From Gammaproteobacteria bacterium (GTDB lineage Bacteria > Pseudomonadota > Gammaproteobacteria > CBDBNL01 > JAAOII01), in contig OZ242372.1 in NCBI GenBank assembly GCA_965209035.1, positions 2,114,279 through 2,178,278 of the forward strand: 64,000 nt of DNA. The letters run 5' to 3'. Position numbers and translations under genes: made by a program. This document shows, piece by piece, positions 3,172 through 64,000 of this stretch (positions are counted from its first letter, which is position 1; each line of letters opens with the position of its first letter). The notes under the pieces were generated by a model that saw only the letters and a list, made by a program, of their open reading frames with translations, had not been told where the DNA came from and made no database searches.

Positions 3172-4313
3172 TCGCGGCGATGTTTATTAATGTCATCATG
3201 CCAGGCGTCCTCTTCGGCATGCATATATCTTTGTGTGGTGGTGATACTGGCATGGCGGGCGGTTGCTTTGAGGTGGCGGATGTCCACGCCCTTATCCGCT
3301 TGATGTGTGATGGAAGTGTGCCGCATCCAATGGGTGGAGGCGTTGCGTAATTTTTCCGCCTTGCTTGGCGAAAGGCTTTGTACCGCATCCGCCGCATCCG
3401 CCATGGTCTTTTTGACGATCAGGTAAATGGATTTTGAAGTGATGCCGCGCATTCCTTTAAGATCCGCTATTAAAGGTGTTTCGTCTTTGGGACCGGGCAG
3501 AGAAGAGAGACCCAGAAAACCCCTATAGCGTTTTAGTGCCGTCAGCATGTCTTCCGGGACGGGAATTCTTGCCGTCTTATTGCCTTTGCCGGTGACCTGC
3601 CACCACCATTTGCCGCGTTCCTCTTGAAAACTGTTCATCTTATGCATTGCAACTTCATTCAAGCGAGGGGCAAGCAAGTAGAGAATACTGAACAAAAAAA
3701 GCCTGCGCTCATACTCGGCAATTTCTTGTTCTGTTTTGTGCGGCAGATTGTTGATGAATTCCCACAAGAACTTCCAAAGATCCTGCTCCAAATACCGTTG
3801 GATTTTACCGGTCTTATTAATCTGCTGGCGCAGATCGCGCTTGAATAACAATTGCAACGGGTTGTATTGCAAGTAGCCCATTTGTGTCATGAAACCAAAG
3901 GCGGTACTTAAGATGGTCAGCGACTGATTTTGACTGGCCGGACTCAGGGGCCCCACAAAAGGCTTCCATGAAGCCTTGTCTCGCGGGACCGCAGGTCCGC
4001 ACCATTCGCCCGCAGGTTGCGGGTCTTTGATGAACAATTTGTATTCTTCCATATCTTCCAAAGTCAAGTCGGACAAAGCCATGCCGCGATTGACAGACCA
4101 TAAGTAAAGACGCTCTATTTCTTTGCGATAATTTTGTTGTGTGTGCGGCGAAGCGGAGAATCTTTCCAGCCAGACATTCACGGCATCGTAATCCTTGGCG
4201 GCGGTTGTCCGTCCCGGCTGTGGTTGGCGGTTTTTGCCGACGGAGCCGTCCGTTTCTTCGTCCAAGTAACGGGGCAGGGCGTCCAAAGGTACAATTAAGA
4301 AATCTCCGCTCAT
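3168..4313 (-). CDS. tyrosine recombinase / phage integrase family protein
   Basis: Catalytic R (APRLNE), K (GKGNK), HxxR (STHWMRHT) and H/Y (RHASITTTQRY); SAM-like N-terminus (SPHTQQNYRKEIERL); ATGA overlap with the rluD ORF. Confidence 0.9.
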   Translation of the reverse strand: MSGDFLIVPLDALPRYLDEETDGSVGKNRQPQPGRTTAAKDYDAVNVWLERFSASPHTQQNYRKEIERLYLWSVNRGMALSDLTLEDMEEYKLFIKDPQPAGEWCGPAVPRDKASWKPFVGPLSPASQNQSLTILSTAFGFMTQMGYLQYNPLQLLFKRDLRQQINKTGKIQRYLEQDLWKFLWEFINNLPHKTEQEIAEYERRLFLFSILYLLAPRLNEVAMHKMNSFQEERGKWWWQVTGKGNKTARIPVPEDMLTALKRYRGFLGLSSLPGPKDETPLIADLKGMRGITSKSIYLIVKKTMADAADAVQSLSPSKAEKLRNASTHWMRHTSITHQADKGVDIRHLKATARHASITTTQRYMHAEEDAWHDDINKHRRE

Positions 4314-11350: not shown

Positions 11351-11367
11351 AAGTTTCCGAAGTCAAG
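11351..11367 (-). mobile_element. relic terminal inverted repeat of the IS1634-family element
   Basis: aagtttccgaagtcaag is the exact reverse complement of 61329-61345 (cttgacttcggaaactt), the end of the intact IS. Confidence 0.85.
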
Positions 11368-11536: not shown

Positions 11537-12661
11537 ATGAAAGCAAACAGATATCTTTGCTATGTTTCTCGTCCTCCTCGCTATAAAAAAAGTATCGCCG
11601 AACTTTTCAAGGGCAACCCAAGGCATCTTATTGAAAACTTCCGCTTAAGAAAGTTGTATTTTTTTGGCTTTAGATATCCCGGGAGATACTCATCTTTATT
11701 GATGAAATATGTAACTTTTGATGCCGGTATAGATCACCTTACATACAATTTAAAGGGCTTGTTGTTAGAGGCTTTTTATTTAAATGCGACTGCAATGATT
11801 TTTCCCATTAGGATATCGCCGGCTCATAACTTTGGTAAAACTATAAACAATTCCGTGGAAGAATACTATAACCTGTCAAAGTCTTATATCACAATAACAA
11901 GAGGAAAAAGAAAAAAATTAAGCTACATTAGTCTAAAGAACCTATCACAAATACGAGGGCGTTACCGTGTTCGTGTGTTTGATATAAAAAAGGGGGCAGT
12001 CCCAAAAGAAATTAATGAAAACACGATAATTATTCGATATTTGGATCCGGCTTATCTTACTGTGAGAGTCACTCACAGATTACAAAAGGATTATCCGGCC
12101 AAAGTTTTATATCGAAAATCCTCGGTATACCGCAAAGCGTCAGTGAACCTAAAATTTTCCGATCAGGTGGTTAGTGACGCTTGGAAAGTGTCTGCCAACC
12201 TTGGAAAATATTATTGTCTGATGTGTCGTTTTCCTTGGGATGAATACGGACCTTTTAGCATGTCCAGGTTGAAAAAATATGTCAATGATTACTATTTAAG
12301 ATACCCTCGTTATCGGCCAATGTGTGATATGATACGGCATTTTTTATCCGCGGAAGATCTTAGGCAACGGTTGTTAGAGATATTTCCGCAAGGCAGTAAG
12401 TTATACATAGCCTCCAATCTTTGGCAGCCCTACGAAGAAGAACATTTTCGTCCGTTGGCTTCTTCATTCAAGATTTACTTTAGTTATGATTTTCCTGAAA
12501 TTGCATCGATGGGTTTGCGAGAAAACCCCGATACATCAAAACTAAAACTTATTGAGAAACTTTTAGTAAAAGATAGTATTGATCATTTGGCGATAACCTA
12601 TTTACACATTAAGTTTTTTGACAAAGATTTATTTAATCGTTTTAAACTCAACGCGAACTAA
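11537..12661 (+). CDS. uncharacterised family-X protein, probable GT-B / O-fucosyltransferase-like glycosyltransferase
   Basis: 374-aa ORF homologous to 58928 and 60140 (AGIDH, HNFG, YYNLS.SY, LG.YY, PWD, IFP.GS..YI.SNLW.P, YDFPE, LKLIE); function inferred from motif order and context. Confidence 0.6.
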   Translation: MKANRYLCYVSRPPRYKKSIAELFKGNPRHLIENFRLRKLYFFGFRYPGRYSSLLMKYVTFDAGIDHLTYNLKGLLLEAFYLNATAMIFPIRISPAHNFGKTINNSVEEYYNLSKSYITITRGKRKKLSYISLKNLSQIRGRYRVRVFDIKKGAVPKEINENTIIIRYLDPAYLTVRVTHRLQKDYPAKVLYRKSSVYRKASVNLKFSDQVVSDAWKVSANLGKYYCLMCRFPWDEYGPFSMSRLKKYVNDYYLRYPRYRPMCDMIRHFLSAEDLRQRLLEIFPQGSKLYIASNLWQPYEEEHFRPLASSFKIYFSYDFPEIASMGLRENPDTSKLKLIEKLLVKDSIDHLAITYLHIKFFDKDLFNRFKLNAN

Positions 12662-12883: not shown

Positions 12884-14005
12884 ATGCAAGAAAACCTTCC
12901 CAAGATCAGTGTTGTGATGGCGACTTATAACCGCGCGGATACTGTCCCAAGAGCAATTGAAAGTATTCTCAATCAAACTTTTAAAGATTTTGAATTCATT
13001 ATTGTCAATGATGGTTCCGCGGACGAGACACAAACTATTTTGGAGTCTTATACTCAAAGAGACCGCCGCGTTAAAATTGTTGTTCAAAAAAACGAAGGAC
13101 CGGCAAGAGCGCGAAATCACGGGGTGCAACATGCCAAAGGAAAATACATCGCCTTCATGGACGATGACGATTTGTCTTTGCCGGCGAGATTGGACGAACA
13201 ATATAAGTTATTGGAAGAACACGCCGGAATAATAGATGCCTGTGTTTGTTACTATAAAGCGGTTATTAAAGATAAAAAGAATTCGAGAGGTGATGAGACG
13301 GTCAAAAAAGAGAGGAGGCCCAATCCCGAGAAGATGAAATACTCCCAAGGGTCCTTAAAAAAATTGCCGGTTCAATTATTTTCTTTATCGCCTATGACGA
13401 TGCTCACCAGGTCTGTTTTTGTTAAGAGTGGCGGGTATAGGCCGTTTTTTGAATATGGGGAAGATTTGGATTTCACCTTGCGCTTCCGAGAAAGGTATCG
13501 TGCCGGTGTTGTTCGCGAGTGTTTGTATGAGTATACATCGCCTTTTTACAATTTTGCTAATAACATGACGACCTCATCTCGCCGCCCCCCCCTTAGAGGA
13601 ATAAAATATATTATGGCTGCCTATGTCAGTGCCTGGTATCGTAGCAACCGGGGGACAGATCCGATTAATGAAGCAAGTACTCTTGAAGATGTTATCGGTA
13701 TGAATACAATTGGTAGTATCCCCGCTGATATTCGGCGTCATATTTTTCTTAAATGCATAAAACTTGAGATGAGAGTTTTTTTCTCCGACCCACATCTTTC
13801 GTATGCATCGGTCATTACTCTTATTCGTTTTCTTCAACGCTGGGATAGAAAAAGGGCCTTACAAATTTTGTATAAAAAAAAACTAATGGTTTTTCGCAGC
13901 CTTTTGAAAAGAGGAAAAATTTTTGATGCATTCCGCTTATGTGGTTTTGGTTTGATGGAATTATTTTTACCACAGGGTGAAAAAAAACACAGTGATGCGA
14001 TATGA
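12884..14005 (+). CDS. glycosyltransferase family 2
   Basis: ISVVMATYNR, IIVNDGSAD, GPARARNHG, YIAFMDDDD, GEDLDF. Confidence 0.92.
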   Translation: MQENLPKISVVMATYNRADTVPRAIESILNQTFKDFEFIIVNDGSADETQTILESYTQRDRRVKIVVQKNEGPARARNHGVQHAKGKYIAFMDDDDLSLPARLDEQYKLLEEHAGIIDACVCYYKAVIKDKKNSRGDETVKKERRPNPEKMKYSQGSLKKLPVQLFSLSPMTMLTRSVFVKSGGYRPFFEYGEDLDFTLRFRERYRAGVVRECLYEYTSPFYNFANNMTTSSRRPPLRGIKYIMAAYVSAWYRSNRGTDPINEASTLEDVIGMNTIGSIPADIRRHIFLKCIKLEMRVFFSDPHLSYASVITLIRFLQRWDRKRALQILYKKKLMVFRSLLKRGKIFDAFRLCGFGLMELFLPQGEKKHSDAI

Positions 14006-14040
14006 ACAAGGTTTGTTATAAAAAATAGCAGTTAATCTGA

Positions 14041-15147
14041 TTGATGATGACAAAGCAAGCTGCTTCTCCACAAATTAGTGTGGTGATGCCGACTTATAAT
14101 CGTGCCGATACCGTTTCGCGAGCAATTGACAGCATACTTAATCAAACCTGCAAAGATTTTGAGTTGATTGTTGTTAATGACGGTTCCACGGACGGAACAC
14201 AAACTATTTTGGAGTCCTATGCTCAAAAAGACCCGCGTATCAAAATTGTTGTTCAAAAAAATGGAGGGTCGGCAAGAGCCCGTAATCATGGGGTGCAACA
14301 TGCCAAAGGCGAATATATTGCTTTTATGGATGATGATGACATTTCCACTCCCGAGCGTTTGGAAAAACAACTGGCTTGTCTTATGCAAGCACCTTGTTAT
14401 AAAGCATGTGTTTGTGTGACAACAAAACGAGGGGTGGTCGCACAAAGAGAAAAGAACAGAGTTCAGGGGCCGTGGCCGGTCCAAAAAGATAAGTTAAATT
14501 TCCCGCTGTTTATTTTGGACGCAACCATGTTAATAGAAAAAAAAGCATTTGAAACTTGCGGAGGATATAATCCACATTTTGTGGTGAAAGAAGATACGGA
14601 GTTTACATTGCAGTTTTTAAAAAAATATTCTGCGATTGCGCTAAAAGATAGTTTTTATATCGTCACGGATAGGGGTGATGGTAAAGATAGCAGATATTCT
14701 TTTTTGAGTTGTGTTTATCGAGTATCGGCCTATATTCATATCGATTCTACTTATAAAAGTTCGTATGCAAAAGAGGATGTATTTTCTTGGGGCACGATTT
14801 TAACAGAACTACCCAATATGTCATGCCAAAAAAGAAAACAATTATTTAAAAAATGTGTTTCCGGTAGAAAAATTAGGAATAAAATATATGAAGTATCTCC
14901 GGAAATATTGCCCGCAAGTTATATTTTTTTCTTATTTTTTCTTCGTCAATTTAGAATTTATAAAGCATTTTGGATGTTTAATAAATTGAAGTTTCTTTGT
15001 TTATTGTATTTTTGGAGGCAAAAAGATTTTAGAACATTGTCCTTGATATGGTCCTTACATTATTTTAGTGATTTTCGATGGAGTCCCCCCAATTTTATTA
15101 ATGGACCGTTCAACGAACCAATTTTTGATAAAAAGAATAAGCGTTAG
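14041..15147 (+). CDS. glycosyltransferase family 2 (tandem paralogue)
   Basis: ISVVMPTYNR, VVNDGSTD, YIAFMDDDD, KEDTEF; first ~110 aa very similar to 12884. Confidence 0.92.
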   Translation: MMMTKQAASPQISVVMPTYNRADTVSRAIDSILNQTCKDFELIVVNDGSTDGTQTILESYAQKDPRIKIVVQKNGGSARARNHGVQHAKGEYIAFMDDDDISTPERLEKQLACLMQAPCYKACVCVTTKRGVVAQREKNRVQGPWPVQKDKLNFPLFILDATMLIEKKAFETCGGYNPHFVVKEDTEFTLQFLKKYSAIALKDSFYIVTDRGDGKDSRYSFLSCVYRVSAYIHIDSTYKSSYAKEDVFSWGTILTELPNMSCQKRKQLFKKCVSGRKIRNKIYEVSPEILPASYIFFLFFLRQFRIYKAFWMFNKLKFLCLLYFWRQKDFRTLSLIWSLHYFSDFRWSPPNFINGPFNEPIFDKKNKR

Positions 15148-58822: not shown

Positions 58823-58927
58823 TCCGTAGTTCTCAACTACACCCGGCTTGCAATTTTTGATTGTTACAAAAATTTGGCAGGGCATGCCTTATTTAACTTT
58901 AATTCACACACACAAATGAATAATGAA

Positions 58928-60046
58928 ATGACTAAAAAACATACCTTTACTATATTTATTTTGCATAGATTAAGTCCTTCTCCTTACAGAGAGAGTTGGC
59001 GTCAACTGAAAAAAGGCAAGCCGGGACATTTGATCAAGAATACCATAATAAGAATGGTAAATGAGATGCGATTATTAAAAATCATCTTGCGGTATCCGCC
59101 AATATTCAGACACCACTTGATAAAGTTGATGGGCAGTGACTCAGCAGGCATAGATCATATCACGCTCGATCTGGTTGATCTGATTAAAGAATCTATTGAT
59201 CTAAACTCCACTGCAATTATTTTTCCGTTCAAAATAAACCCACAGCATAATTTTGGCAGAGAAGCCGATTCCACACCGGATATCTATTACAATCTGTCAG
59301 ATTCTTACTATGTAACTCCGACGGGAGAGAAAAAGAAGATAAGGGTTATTCACGCCAAAGACTTTCTTAAGATGTGGAGCTATTATCGGGTGCGATTTTT
59401 TTGCCAAGGCAAAACAATTCCCCCGACAAAAGAAAACCGGAAAAATATGATTAATGTCTGCCATCGTTATAGTTATGTTAAGCATTTTAAAAGACTACCG
59501 GGAAATGTTAATGGAGAACTTTATGAATATCCTGACGGAACACAGATACACTTGCGTCTTGCGAATGTCCTTATAAAGAAAGCCGAATCGGTTTTGCAAA
59601 CCCTTGGAGAATATTATTTGCTACGCGTTCGAATGCCATGGGATGGACATATCCCATACAGCCATGAGAGGTTAAAAACAGAGATGATTTCGTGGGGGAA
59701 TCAACAGTCTTACGATACTTTGCGAGAGTGGGCCTACGGCGAAGGTCTGCATGAACAATTGCTGAAAATCTTTCCCCGGGGAAGTAATGTATATATCATG
59801 TCCAATCTTTGGAGGCCGTTTGATGAAGATTACTTCGGTCCTTTGCGTCGTTCATTCAAGGTGTATCGTTACTATGATTTTCCGGAACTTGTCCAATTAG
59901 CGGAGGGTGAGAAATGCAACACCGGACAGTTAAAATTAATTGAGAGGGAATTTCAAAAACAGAGCACAGACAGTCTGACTTTGGATTATCGCAGGCCGAT
60001 TACGACCGGTCAAAATATACAATCTCGTTTTAATTATTTTAATTAA
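58928..60046 (+). CDS. family-X protein (probable GT-B/O-fucosyltransferase-like), array copy 1
   Basis: Homologous to 11537 and 60140; start chosen by alignment with MTNKTYL of 60140. Confidence 0.65.
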   Translation: MTKKHTFTIFILHRLSPSPYRESWRQLKKGKPGHLIKNTIIRMVNEMRLLKIILRYPPIFRHHLIKLMGSDSAGIDHITLDLVDLIKESIDLNSTAIIFPFKINPQHNFGREADSTPDIYYNLSDSYYVTPTGEKKKIRVIHAKDFLKMWSYYRVRFFCQGKTIPPTKENRKNMINVCHRYSYVKHFKRLPGNVNGELYEYPDGTQIHLRLANVLIKKAESVLQTLGEYYLLRVRMPWDGHIPYSHERLKTEMISWGNQQSYDTLREWAYGEGLHEQLLKIFPRGSNVYIMSNLWRPFDEDYFGPLRRSFKVYRYYDFPELVQLAEGEKCNTGQLKLIEREFQKQSTDSLTLDYRRPITTGQNIQSRFNYFN

Positions 60047-60139
60047 CTGCGGAGTATGTCCGAGATATAGAATCAGGTCTGTTTTATTTTTACGCGAGCA
60101 TCATCAAACTTATCCTGCTTCAATAAAATAGACAGCGAA

Positions 60140-61300
60140 ATGACTAACAAAACATACCTTTGTCATATTTTTATATTTCTACCTTTTCTTTCTTACAAGG
60201 ATAGTTTGGATGCACTAAAAAAAGGAAACCTAAGGCATTTGATTGGGAATATCAGGAGAATAATATTGCGTTATTTTCTCTATTTTCTCTTTAAGTATCC
60301 GTCAATATTTAGACATCGGTTGGTAAAGTCAATGGGCAGTCACAAAGCAGGTATATCTCATATTACGCGCGATATGATTGATCTGATTAAAGAATCTATT
60401 GATCTAAATTCCACTGCGGTTATTTTGCCATTCCAATTAGCCTCAGTTCATAATTTGGGGAAAGAATATTACTCCACATCGGATATCTATTACAATCTGT
60501 CGGATTCTTATTATGTAACTCCGGCGGGAGAGAAGAAGAACATAAGGGTTATTCAGGCCAAAGACTTTCTTAAGATGCGGAACTGGTATCGGGTGCGTTT
60601 TTTCTGTCAATATGAAACAATGCACCCGGCAAAAGAAACCGGGAATACTATTAATGTCCGCTGGCGTGATGATGTTGAGCATTTGGAAAAACGACCGGAA
60701 AACCCTAATATCCTATTCTTTGAATATAATGACGGAACACAGATACACTTGTGCCTTGCGGATGACCTTATAAACAAAGTTGAATCGGTTTCGTCAACCC
60801 TTGGAGAATATTACTTGCTCCGTGTTCGCATGCCATGGGATGGACATACTCCTTATAACAAAGAATTGTTGAAGAAAAAAATAATGGATTGGGAAATGGT
60901 GCATAGAAATAGGGCTGCTCAGGGCATAGGGAGAGGGCAGAAAGAAGCTATTGCGTTCGGGAATCAACAGTCTTACGATACTTTGCAAGATTGGACCTAT
61001 GGCGAAGGTCTGCGTGAACAATTGCTAAAAATCTTTCCCCGGGGAAGTAATGTATATATCATGTCCAATCTTTGGAAGCCGTTTGATGAAGATTACTTCG
61101 GTCCCTTGCGTCGTTCGTTCAAAGTGTATCGCTACTATGATTTCCCGGAACTTGTCCAATTAGCGGAGGGTGAGAAATGCAATACAGCACAGTTAAAATT
61201 AATTGAGATGCAACTTCAAGAACAGAGCATAGACAGTTTGACTTTGGATTATCTCAGACCGATTACGACCTGTCTAAATATGCAATCTCGTTTTAATTAA
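60140..61300 (+). CDS. family-X protein (probable GT-B/O-fucosyltransferase-like), array copy 2
   Basis: 386 aa with long near-identical blocks shared with 58928 (DLIKESIDLNSTA, DIYYNLSDSYYVTP, LGEYYLLRVRMPWDGH, IFPRGSNVYIMSNLW). Confidence 0.7.
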   Translation: MTNKTYLCHIFIFLPFLSYKDSLDALKKGNLRHLIGNIRRIILRYFLYFLFKYPSIFRHRLVKSMGSHKAGISHITRDMIDLIKESIDLNSTAVILPFQLASVHNLGKEYYSTSDIYYNLSDSYYVTPAGEKKNIRVIQAKDFLKMRNWYRVRFFCQYETMHPAKETGNTINVRWRDDVEHLEKRPENPNILFFEYNDGTQIHLCLADDLINKVESVSSTLGEYYLLRVRMPWDGHTPYNKELLKKKIMDWEMVHRNRAAQGIGRGQKEAIAFGNQQSYDTLQDWTYGEGLREQLLKIFPRGSNVYIMSNLWKPFDEDYFGPLRRSFKVYRYYDFPELVQLAEGEKCNTAQLKLIEMQLQEQSIDSLTLDYLRPITTCLNMQSRFN

Positions 61301-61328
61301 CGGCGGGGTATATCCCGGGTTCGGGTCT
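60768..61328 (+). repeat. 561-bp direct repeat, left copy (putative target-site duplication)
   Basis: ttataaacaaagttgaatcgg...cccgggttcgggtct; no mismatch seen against 63315-63875; ends exactly at the IS terminus. Confidence 0.95.
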
Positions 61329-63314
61329 CTTGACTTCGGAAACTTCTTAAAAAACCCTGTTTTTATAAGGGTTTGCGGGCCGTTTTTATACACTATGAGC
61401 CCTTGCGACTTTGCTTCTTGCGCTTAGTGTTTGTGATCCAACAGAGCAGGTTGTTTGGGTTTTAGTTGAACGGCTTGTAAAATGCGTTGCTGTCCCGGGG
61501 TGAGTTGGTGTGGGCTGCTGTAATAGTTGCCAACGGGATTGCGTTGGATAGTTGCTTTGAAGTTGCGCAGTTCTTTGAGGATCTTCTTGGTGGTGACGAT
61601 TTCCTCGGTCTTGTTTTTTTGCGGCGGCTGCGGTCGGGCATCTAGATCGGTGAACGGCAGCATTTCGGTGGTCCACACGGTGGTGGGTGCGGGCTTTTGT
61701 TGGCGGAGGACATACCGCAAGCGGCGGATGGCGGCAAACGCCAGATAGCAGAGGGCGAAATGGGCGCGGATGCGCTCGGGTTTCCAATGGAAGGTCGGGC
61801 GGATTTGCAGATCACTTTTAAGATCCCGGAAGCCGTGTTCAATGGCATACAGTTGTTTGTAGTAAGTGTAGGCGGTTTGGTAGTCAATATTGGGCGAGGC
61901 CTGCACGCCATAGAGACCGATTTCTTGCATCGCCCGGTTGATGGCTGTGGGGTTCAGTGTGGTGATGCCGTTGTTGGATAAGAACTTACGGATATCGGGA
62001 CAGGCAATCCCCCGCAGAGCTTGGTGGTTGCGGCCGGTACTGTTTTTGGCCCGCTTCAAGGCCAGATGCAGCTGATGGAGATCGCGGCGGGCGCGCTTGG
62101 AGGAGAAGTTGGCATAATAATTGCGTGCCACCAGAGGGCGGTCGTTGTCGGCAAGTTGGGTGCGCGCGGGTGGTAGCAAGCCGATCTCAAAGATGCGGGC
62201 CCCGCCTTCAAAATCATAGTTGTAGACCGCCGTGCGGATCTCTTTGGGTAACTTGCGTGGCGAACAGGCCATGACAAACGCATGCCCGGCCGCCGTAATC
62301 GCCGCCAAGTTGTCTTCACTGAGGAGGCCGTTGTCAGCAATCACCACCGTCTTTTGGGCCCCCAGCCGCCGCTGCATCTCGTCCAAAGCCGGCAACAAGG
62401 TCGACACATCCGCGGTCTTACCGGTAAATAGTTTGTAGCCCAACGGCAAGCCACAAGGCGTCATCCACATCCCAAAGACCACCTGCGTCCGATGGGCTTT
62501 GCCGTCTTTGGACCAACCTCTGCAGCGGAAGTCATCCGCCTGCACCGATTCAAAATAAAAGGTCGTCGTGTCATACAGCAACAGCTGCACCGTCTTTTGG
62601 TTAAGTAATGCCAAATTGGAACGTGCCACCCGCATCTGAATGCGCTCAATCTCGGCATCATCCAAATGATCCATCGCTTTGTACATGCTGTCCTCAGACC
62701 AGTGGATCCCATATTCTTCTTCCAACAGCTGCGACAATTGCCGTTTACTAATCCGCTCGGCCGTCAGCCGCCCCCAACTGAGCACCCGCAAACAGGCATT
62801 CAGCCGTTGGCGCCGCGGTGCCACCAACGTATCCAAGCCCATGGACGCAAATAATTTCTCCATGACATAGGGCAGACCGTAACTGCGCGCACCTAAAGTT
62901 CTTAAGGCCGAAAGTGCCCCCGGTCCATCGTCATCCACCCGGTCGTTGCGCCGGATAGCATGGCCACGACCACAGCCCACCACCTTTTGATGTTTTGTTA
63001 AAAACGCATTCAGTGAGGTGCTTTGTCTTAATTCCTTCTCCAAGCGGCGGCAGCGTTGCTCCATCTCGGCCCGCACCACCGCATATTCCGCACTGTCGGC
63101 TTCCACCGGTTGGCTGGTATACAGAGTCATATTGTTCGGCTGCTTGTGCTTGGACCGATAAAAAGAAAAAACCACGGACAGAACCTGCCCGTTTTTTCGA
63201 GTGAATTCGCGAATATACATATTATGCTTTTAATTATACACTATTAAAGATCCTAAAAAAACCTTGAAAATACAAGGTTTTTTAAAAATATAATAATTTC
63301 TTTCCGAAGTCAAG
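61329..63314 (-). mobile_element. IS1634-family insertion sequence, 1986 bp
   Basis: Perfect 14-bp terminal inverted repeats CTTGACTTCGGAAA (61329-61342) / TTTCCGAAGTCAAG (63301-63314); single transposase; visibly more GC-rich than the flanks. Confidence 0.93.
61424..63220 (-). CDS. IS1634-family DDE transposase
   Basis: YKAMD.L, LYDTTTFYFES, GWSKDGK...QVV.G, VIADNGL, IEHGFRDLKSDLQIRPTFHWKPERIRAHFALCYLAF. Confidence 0.93.
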   Translation of the reverse strand: MYIREFTRKNGQVLSVVFSFYRSKHKQPNNMTLYTSQPVEADSAEYAVVRAEMEQRCRRLEKELRQSTSLNAFLTKHQKVVGCGRGHAIRRNDRVDDDGPGALSALRTLGARSYGLPYVMEKLFASMGLDTLVAPRRQRLNACLRVLSWGRLTAERISKRQLSQLLEEEYGIHWSEDSMYKAMDHLDDAEIERIQMRVARSNLALLNQKTVQLLLYDTTTFYFESVQADDFRCRGWSKDGKAHRTQVVFGMWMTPCGLPLGYKLFTGKTADVSTLLPALDEMQRRLGAQKTVVIADNGLLSEDNLAAITAAGHAFVMACSPRKLPKEIRTAVYNYDFEGGARIFEIGLLPPARTQLADNDRPLVARNYYANFSSKRARRDLHQLHLALKRAKNSTGRNHQALRGIACPDIRKFLSNNGITTLNPTAINRAMQEIGLYGVQASPNIDYQTAYTYYKQLYAIEHGFRDLKSDLQIRPTFHWKPERIRAHFALCYLAFAAIRRLRYVLRQQKPAPTTVWTTEMLPFTDLDARPQPPQKNKTEEIVTTKKILKELRNFKATIQRNPVGNYYSSPHQLTPGQQRILQAVQLKPKQPALLDHKH

Positions 63315-63847
63315 TTATAAACAAAGTTGAATCGGTTTCGTCAACCCTTGGAGAATATTACTTGCTCCGTGTTCGCATGCCATGGGATGGACATACTCCT
63401 TATAACAAAGAATTGTTGAAGAAAAAAATAATGGATTGGGAAATGGTGCATAGAAATAGGGCTGCTCAGGGCATAGGGAGAGGGCAGAAAGAAGCTATTG
63501 CGTTCGGGAATCAACAGTCTTACGATACTTTGCAAGATTGGACCTATGGCGAAGGTCTGCGTGAACAATTGCTAAAAATCTTTCCCCGGGGAAGTAATGT
63601 ATATATCATGTCCAATCTTTGGAAGCCGTTTGATGAAGATTACTTCGGTCCCTTGCGTCGTTCGTTCAAAGTGTATCGCTACTATGATTTCCCGGAACTT
63701 GTCCAATTAGCGGAGGGTGAGAAATGCAATACAGCACAGTTAAAATTAATTGAGATGCAACTTCAAGAACAGAGCATAGACAGTTTGACTTTGGATTATC
63801 TCAGACCGATTACGACCTGTCTAAATATGCAATCTCGTTTTAATTAA
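63315..63847 (+). pseudogene. duplicated 3' half of the 60140 gene (5'-truncated)
   Basis: ORF 63362-63847 matches the C-terminal ~160 aa of 60140; produced by the duplication. Confidence 0.9.
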
Positions 63848-63875
63848 CGGCGGGGTATATCCCGGGTTCGGGTCT
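63315..63875 (+). repeat. 561-bp direct repeat, right copy (putative target-site duplication)
   Basis: Starts at the base after the IS end; offset 2547 from the left copy; flanking bases differ on both sides. Confidence 0.95.
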
Positions 63876-63934
63876 GTTTTATTGTTACCGGAGTTTCATT
63901 AAACTTATCCTGCTCCAATAAACTAGACATCGAA

Positions 63935-64000
63935 ATGACTAACAAAACATACCTTTGTTATATCTTTAACAATTATCGTTTGCTTTTTCCTCCTTACGGA
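63935..64000 (+). CDS. family-X protein, array copy 3, 5' end (runs off window)
   Basis: ATG 63935 reads MTNKTYLCYIFNNYRLLFPPYG versus MTNKTYLCHIF at 60140; upstream spacer homologous to 60047-60139. Confidence 0.8.
   Translation, partial: MTNKTYLCYIFNNYRLLFPPYG

Follow-up and report, generated by a model that had tools for sequence, protein, structure and literature searches.

Target duplications made by DDE transposases result from the attack of the element's two 3′-OH ends on opposite strands of the target, offset by a 5′ stagger, and from the gap filling that follows; in IS4/Tn5-type elements, the strand transfer of both ends is concerted and the stagger is fixed at 9–12 bp. Much longer direct repeats are associated with two insertion sequences (IS), namely IS1634 of Mycoplasma mycoides subsp. 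mycoides SC, reportedly described by Vilei et al. in 1999, and IS1549 of Mycobacterium smegmatis, reportedly described by Plikaytis et al. in 1998. The IS1634 family description lists both elements as family exceptions with duplications of 8–514 bp, and the same paper stated in 2008 that there was no mechanistic model for such long repeats (De Palmenaer 2008, PMC2266710). A later mechanistic account of IS1634/IS1549-type long duplications was not found in the open-access literature. The DNA examined here is a stretch of 64,000 nt from a Gammaproteobacteria bacterium (contig OZ242372.1, positions 2,114,279 to 2,178,278), referred to as the window, which forms the last 64 kb of contig C1 in a 2.24 Mb genome of two contigs. 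Within it, an IS1634-family IS of 1986 bp (61329–63314, minus strand) is flanked by a direct repeat of 561 bp and, judged by comparing the locus with its paralogs and with other copies of the element, this repeat is very probably the product of the insertion.

The element, its flanking repeat and its target sites

The two copies of the repeat, at 60768–61328 and 63315–63875, differ by 0 mismatches over 561 bp and can be extended by 0 bases on either side. The IS between them ends in perfect 14-bp terminal inverted repeats (CTTGACTTCGGAAA; a 14-nt pair with 100% complementarity), located at 61329–61342 on the transposase 3′ side (plus strand) and at 63301–63314 on the transposase 5′ side (minus strand). 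Both 561-bp copies adjoin these termini to the base, so the architecture given in the preliminary description is exact. The inverted repeat on the 5′ side carries a −35-like TTGACT pointing inward to the transposase gene, and a promoter-like match is predicted at 63313–63285 on the minus strand (consensus match only). G+C content is 52.7% in the IS, 42.1% in the 561-bp repeat and 47.3% in the window. As a chance control, 20,000 random position pairs set 1986 bp apart in the same genome yielded 13 with an abutting exact repeat of at least 20 bp, the longest of them 130 bp. The 561-bp sequence itself occurs exactly twice in the genome, and its remaining matches are paralogs with 78–93% identity.

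The outer boundaries were examined next to these paralogs. The target is gene B (60140–61300, plus strand; 386 aa, intact), where the left repeat copy starts with TTATAA (60768–60773) in codon 210 and ends 28 bp past the stop codon. Gene B continues in frame across 60768, collinear with its paralogs, and the right boundary (63875/63876) has uninterrupted counterparts in the paralogous junction at C1:1072/1073 and in the junction between gene B and paralog A, its upstream neighbor in the tandem array (58874–60046, plus strand). In particular, C1:694–1072 followed by 1073–1165 reproduces the repeat followed by the right flank as one unbroken match. Both outer junctions, which had been proposed for checking, are thus native sequence by collinearity, and deleting the IS together with one repeat copy restores gene B, an 87-bp spacer and the downstream paralog, gene C.

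Six full copies of the IS are present in the genome, four at 100% identity (the window copy among them) and two at 90%. All six have exact flanking repeats, each a different sequence, with lengths of 561, 212, 190, 169, 247 and 159 bp. Long and variable repeats are therefore a property of the element, as had been anticipated, and the 561-bp sequence does not travel with other IS copies. The perfect identity of the two 561-bp copies and of the four IS copies likewise bears out the view that the event was recent. Further, two miniature derivatives keep only the ends of a related IS (~75% identity): one of 429 bp (C1:1620742–1621170), inserted into an older remnant of an IS end, is flanked by a repeat of 295 bp with 1 mismatch, and the other of 431 bp (C1:1142381–1142811) is without a flanking repeat. 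In a decayed copy (C1:1878104–1884824), the ends are 6.7 kb apart and the 80-bp flanking repeat is identical at 72 of 80 positions; its interior is highly repetitive DNA with many internal direct repeats of 73–96% identity.

Fragments of the element occur as well. Solo terminal inverted repeats, one perfect and one with 2 mismatches, lie at 11354–11367 and 4055–4068 of the window, the perfect one ~170 bp upstream of a distant gene B paralog. At C1:562751–563072, a spacer of 118 bp separates an IS end from an IS start in head-to-tail order, an arrangement that could be left over from two neighboring copies or from a tandem formed through the repeats. The cumulative GC skew of C1 has its minimum near 1.14 Mb (origin) and its maximum near 0.05 Mb (terminus); the window lies within ~100 kb of this predicted terminus, where three of the four identical IS copies cluster (2.175, 0.097 and 0.139 Mb).

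The family assignment, made at first from the sequence alone, holds firmly. The product of the intact transposase gene (61424–63220, minus strand; 598 aa) reaches 301.9 bits with the NCBIfam profile NF033559 'IS1634 family transposase' (E 9.8e-90, profile positions 33–482 of 483), three times the cut-off of 100, and all six full copies lie above this cut-off. It also matches Pfam PF01609 DDE_Tnp_1 (E 4.1e-10, 40.2 bits, cut-off 23). The DDE residues are D217, D296 and E461; in an alignment of the transposase with 14 relatives, D296 and E461 are invariant and D217 is present in 14 of the 15 sequences. Y454-x2-L457-x3-E461-x6-K468 constitutes the YREK motif without its R; this motif is invariant in the alignment, and all 15 sequences have L in the position of R. 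The family treatment describes a YREK variant, usually without arginine, as a mark of IS1634 members, and its table gives a length of 1500–2000 bp, one reading frame and ends of the form C-----YT (De Palmenaer 2008, PMC2266710); the present element has 1986 bp, a single 598-aa frame and the end CTTGACTT, with C at position 1 and TT at positions 7–8. The family-typical AT-rich target duplication of 5–6 bp is replaced by duplications of 159–561 bp, an atypical length that does not exclude membership, since IS1634 and IS1549 are themselves listed as exceptions. Among 5.8 billion clustered proteins, the nearest non-self transposase is 86% identical and equals the genome's own 90% DNA variant in size; identity then drops to 44% for the next one and to at most 38% for all others, making the element a rather isolated member of its family.

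Target sites were reconstructed for seven young elements and one old element, the decayed copy. The duplicated segment starts with 5′-TTATA[A/C] at one end in seven of these eight and with TTAGAT in the eighth, so that TAA adjoins the IS end in every case. At the other end of the segment, T adjoins the IS in eight of eight sites, and AT in six of the seven young ones. TTATA[A/C] has a frequency of ~1 per 2200 positions per strand, and finding it by chance in six of seven sites has a binomial P of ~4e-18. The TTATAA at 60768 is native to gene B, because paralog A has TTATAA at the same place. The orientation of the IS relative to the TTATA end is split 2 versus 5, and either IS end can therefore adjoin TTATA. 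By GC skew, the TTATA end is origin-proximal in five of the seven orientation-scored insertions and distal in two, which is uninformative on fork direction; a scan for a terminator at the right cut site gave no support for one.

Relatives and short-duplication elements in the same genomes

A profile built from the transposase and its nearest relatives retrieved 576 related stretches from one-genome-per-species contigs, and the best 80 of the 576 were taken. A locus was evaluable when both termini were recognized, with a CCTGACTTC-like sequence and an inverted repeat over at least 13 of their 16 terminal bases, and when at least 1000 bp of flank remained on each side. By these definitions, 31 of the 80 were evaluable and 49 were left out, having too short a contig, ends that were not found or a weaker inverted repeat. 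Exact abutting repeats of 23–487 bp flank 22 of the 31; four more have inexact repeats (479 bp at 99.8%, 104 bp at 92%, 96 bp at 92%, and 964 bp at 98.4% with one gap), and one has a repeat of 8 bp. Five of the left-out loci with weaker inverted repeats also have flanking repeats, of 37–447 bp. The hosts belong to about ten phyla and include Chlamydiota, Alpha-, Beta- and Gammaproteobacteria, Rhodothermales, Bacteroidota, Bdellovibrionota, Balneolaceae, Verrucomicrobia, Acidobacteriota, Chlorobiaceae and Thermodesulfobacteriota; in the host's own family and order (5 and 6 species genomes, this one included), a transposase query found no homolog among the other genomes. Across 52 junctions from 26 relatives, the target base adjoining the IS is T in 44, and the base preceding it is a pyrimidine in 39.

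Five of the relatives' genomes (G006–G010) were then considered with all of their copies. For example, type A in G006, a Bdellovibrionales chromosome, has 13 copies with exact repeats of 550, 695, 627, 457, 265, 227, 122, 129 and 284 bp, one of 443 bp at 99.8%, and three without a repeat. Seven loci in the complete genome of Limibacterium fermenti (G008) include exact repeats of 94, 611, 77, 487 and 245 bp and one of 325 bp at 99.7%; type 1 in G009 has four copies with 169, 37, 52 and 91 bp; G007 has two copies, one with 250 bp and one with none; and the single copy in G010 has 124 bp. Type B in G006 has seven copies, with repeats of 87, 156 and 147 bp, one of 719 bp at 96% and three of at most 3 bp, all at cruder multi-copy boundaries, as the CCTGACTTC-type motif found no correct end pairs there (none in six copies, a weak one at L128). 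In the three genomes with the most copies of the CCTGACTTC type, long repeats thus flank 10 of 13, four of four and six of seven copies, up to 695 bp exact. The preliminary description had placed 561 bp at or beyond the upper end of the known range: the length does exceed the 8–514 bp quoted for the family exceptions (De Palmenaer 2008, PMC2266710), and yet it is long without being the maximum, since relatives reach 611, 627 and 695 bp with exact repeats.

Two of these genomes also contain IS1634-family types that make short duplications. In G009, a 598-aa type with ends CGGAACTTCAC has an exact 6-bp N-YTAR-N duplication in six of ten copies, the other four being imperfect, and a 614-aa type has a 4–5-bp duplication in 11 of 11; in G010, two types have 6-bp duplications in five of five. 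A long repeat was found in none of these 26 copies, and 22 of the 26 have exact duplications of 4–6 bp. Because short types lack long repeats within the same genomes, the trait goes with the element, and neither the host nor the way of assembly accounts for it. Several 614-aa-type copies in G009 (L133–L140) share a common repeated context, ...ccggtctgact before the IS and agtctgaagaccgg... after it, which suggests that this type inserts into a repeated palindromic element with the target TCTGA/TCAGA.

The distribution of the trait was mapped on a maximum-likelihood tree of 40 transposases, which was built in a quick IQ-TREE run and rooted at the midpoint. The studied IS falls in a clade (99% SH-aLRT support) that comprises 27 long-repeat rows, four no-repeat rows and one 8-bp row; the other side of the tree holds the seven short-duplication rows and type B of G006. 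As related rows share labels, the tree shows clustering of the trait and not a single origin.

Proposed joining of the ends and alternative explanations

These results make it very probable that an active IS inserted recently in a tandem array of fucosyltransferase-like genes, that its ends were joined to opposite strands 561 bp apart, and that gap repair generated the duplication. One joint would have formed at the 5′ edge of TTATAA inside gene B, the second directly downstream of ...TCT at a point 28 bp past the stop codon of that gene. Repair synthesis would then have filled two 561-nt single-stranded gaps, leaving a perfect 561-bp target-site duplication. Across the copies in this genome, such a 5′-staggered double strand transfer would have had a stagger of 159–561 bp. 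The base preference at both joints, the variable lengths and the lack of 10.5-bp phasing together suggest that the transposase makes both joints, without a fixed active-site spacing of a few bp.

How the two joints might come to lie so far apart is a more tentative matter. One end may insert canonically at an AT-rich hexamer, after which the attack of the second end would be released to a distant site on the opposite strand, next to T; the TTATAA anchor resembles the N-YTAR-N hexamers that short-duplication relatives duplicate whole. Single-end strand transfers would then be spatially uncoupled, with one hexamer-selecting end in this lineage and the other end at a variable distance next to T, a proposal to which we give rather less than an even chance. 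Uncoupled ends would not account for the polarity, which is always a duplication and never a deletion. The broader version, in which long variable duplications (tens to ~700 bp) are the normal mode of a large and ancient IS1634-family clade with CCTGACTTC termini, spread over ~ten phyla, whose DDE end-joinings are uncoupled, is likewise given somewhat less than an even chance. To our knowledge, a spatially uncoupled end-joining geometry of a DDE transposase has not been described before.

Among the alternatives, the one that survives best holds that the insertion had a short stagger or was one-ended, and that a host process, such as one tied to a replication fork, to gapped DNA or to template switching in repair, duplicated the flank afterwards. 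The variable and unphased repeat lengths agree with this, and one sequence-specific end combined with one loose end would fit two steps. However, short-duplication family members in the same host genomes show 0 of 26 long repeats, so the trait follows the element; T at 44 of 52 junctions suggests that the transposase makes both joints; and the position of the TTATA end, origin-proximal in five and distal in two of seven, shows no clear tie to fork direction. Overall, a host origin of the duplication appears improbable.

A second alternative is that the assembler doubled the flank while threading a multi-copy IS, so that one real 561-bp copy exists. The feature does end 125 bp from the contig end, the IS is present in four identical copies and spanning reads were not seen. 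Yet that contig end is merely the linearization point of a circle: joined to the contig start, it gives one open frame of 398 codons, gene C (63935–64000 in the window, plus strand, continuing into C1:1–1041), which is 67.5% identical to gene B over its full length, and the paralog thus reads seamlessly across. Circular C1 was, in other words, linearized inside a gene. The reads point the same way. Three runs (X1–X3) from one sample, probably the source of the assembly, were available as Logan unitigs only, and in all three the unitig covering 60379–60797 ends 30 bases beyond the left boundary, because a k = 31 graph there meets sequence that gains a second left context, as expected for a repeat in two contexts. 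Unitig depth over the repeat is about twice that of its flank: relative to the unique 5′ part of gene B, it is 55 versus 26.5–27.2 in X1, 26.4 versus 15.3–16.1 in X2 and 40–46 versus 15 in X3, while the IS itself has a depth of ~3.5–5.3 times the flank in X1. Moreover, every other IS copy has a different long repeat, and independently assembled genomes of relatives agree, among them that of a cultured strain whose genome is complete (L092, 487 bp; G008, 611 bp). Such an artefact is accordingly very unlikely.

Equally unlikely is that part of the paralog array was already duplicated in tandem and that the IS entered the junction of this duplication afterwards, making an ordinary short duplication: the locus is indeed a tandem paralog array with repeats that are 77–93% identical, but the two copies are 100% identical against at most 93% for paralogs, both inner ends are IS termini to the base with no short duplication, the same architecture recurs at six other unrelated loci, and the A-to-B and C-to-D gene junctions correspond to the locus once the IS and one repeat copy are taken out.

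Several results nonetheless weigh against a recent insertion with widely spaced joints, or against parts of the mechanism proposed for it. Within the genome, one of the eight elements with both ends has no repeat, and four of the 31 evaluable relatives lack a flanking repeat. The depth ratios are uneven across runs (1.7, 2.05 and 2.7–3.0, all above 1.6), partly because paralogs share words. No listed unitig of X1–X3 spans the whole repeat-IS-repeat structure. The IS-free allele was not found either: an independent run (X4) contributed 22 reads, each of which falls on the IS and not on gene B, so that the run has no bearing on an empty site, and an exact 40-mer across the junction between the right repeat copy and its flank had 0 matches in metagenome contigs. 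Since an IS-free allele would have no junction that is absent from the filled allele, short reads and word indexes cannot detect it. As to the mechanism, there is no helical phasing of repeat lengths in a period scan of 9–12 bp (Rayleigh test against jittered lengths; own copies, n = 7, P = 0.42; relatives, n = 22, P = 0.59; all, n = 29, P = 0.58), and the TTATA anchor was not seen at the relatives' 52 junctions, where both ends merely favor T. Finally, type B of G006 has long repeats and falls outside the long-repeat clade, where it sits at an uncertain position on a long branch (1.67).

The run X4 derives from a second sample with the same species label. It carries, at low depth, an IS variant that is 95–99% identical over 61396–63314 and has consistent base differences.

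The gene B locus and comparison with described elements

With the left cut in gene B and the right cut beyond it, gene B remains whole, and the earlier reading that one cut fell in the gene and the other downstream, leaving it intact and creating a spare 3′ part, is correct. The second repeat copy (63315–63875) holds gene B residues ~210–386 as a promoterless spare 3′ part with an open frame at 63362–63847, and gene C, with its ATG at 63935, retains 561 bp of its original upstream sequence. The insertion had also been called non-destructive, which is right for this locus and cannot be generalized: in five of seven insertions examined, all frames of at least 100 codons are spared or the site is intergenic, while in the other two, both of the 90% variant, both cuts fall inside frames of 775 and 667 codons, which are disrupted. 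Recombination of the RecA type between the 561-bp repeats would plausibly remove the IS precisely or amplify it, as had been suggested.

Gene B belongs to a family with at least ten paralogs in the genome (window 58874–64000 and 11537–12604; C1:1–1923, 13943–15106, 93638–97058 and 602495–603373), three of which adjoin another IS copy. The paralogs have ~386 aa and in part form tandem arrays, which lie to either side of the predicted replication terminus; members of the family adjoin two of the six full IS copies. Gene B has no Pfam or NCBIfam match, and 44 cluster representatives of 1.84 billion match it at E ≤0.001; among 27 relatives tested, none has a relevant Pfam family and one has two sub-threshold, unrelated matches. 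Language-model features of the protein fall with O-FucT clusters (score 0.92, 174 shared features). Its AlphaFold model (pLDDT 86.4) is matched by Foldseek to POFUT1, POFUT2, FUT8 and NodZ, with E from 4e-4, a probability of about 1 and a TM score of about 0.4. Gene B is therefore tentatively predicted to have a GT-B fucosyltransferase-like fold, which is an assignment of fold and not of function.

The neighboring HscA reaches no more than 53% identity with named homologs, for example that of Marinobacterium, and the host is a deep-branching gammaproteobacterial lineage.

Duplications of hundreds of bp by a DDE transposase have posed a question of mechanism since 1998–99. What is added here is a clade-wide survey of repeats with short-duplication controls from the same genomes, and the TTATA anchor. 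The present genome supplies a young, active-looking IS whose target sites have a clear sequence anchor; the survey adds relatives of both the long- and the short-duplication kind that share a host, and such natural pairs of transposases suit domain swaps. There are practical consequences too: software for IS annotation or insertion mapping that expects duplications below ~15 bp will mis-call these elements, and the duplicated gene pieces would be misread as pseudogenes or paralogs. As a segment that is cut only once survives intact on one side, as do gene B and the 561 bp that precede gene C here, long-repeat insertions can spare genes and upstream regions while adding spare gene fragments to multigene families, and the long direct repeats left behind would permit precise loss or amplification.

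The closest counterparts are the two family exceptions. Set beside them by description only, the studied IS has the same transposase family as IS1634 and, like it, long direct repeats that differ from copy to copy, and it shares with IS1549, after which the family was originally named, both membership and long variable repeats (PMC2266710). It differs in its host, a deep-branching gammaproteobacterium in contrast to a mollicute for IS1634 and an actinobacterium for IS1549, and in that its young copies all have at least 159 bp against the 8–514 bp quoted for the two elements together. In the studied IS, one cut is anchored at TTATA[A/C]. A fresh IS1549 insertion with a 13-bp duplication has also been reported (PMC10066036), showing that duplication lengths vary widely.

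Canonical IS1634-family elements resemble the studied IS in family, size class, single frame and a YREK motif without R. They differ in their fixed stagger of 4–6 bp, as opposed to 159–561 bp here, with published duplications of 6 bp for ISGka5 (PMC8024623) and 5–6 bp for ISTth3 (PMC6352166); further, the short types have other termini (CGGAACTTCAC, CTCATCTT) and fall outside the long-repeat clade. With IS4/Tn5, the element shares the DDE_Tnp_1 domain and duplication by a 5′ stagger and gap repair, whereas its stagger is variable and 20 to 60 times longer, which fits poorly with a single synaptic complex whose two active sites keep a fixed spacing. The studied IS is thus a new example of the known, rare and mechanistically unexplained long-repeat behavior of IS1634 and IS1549.

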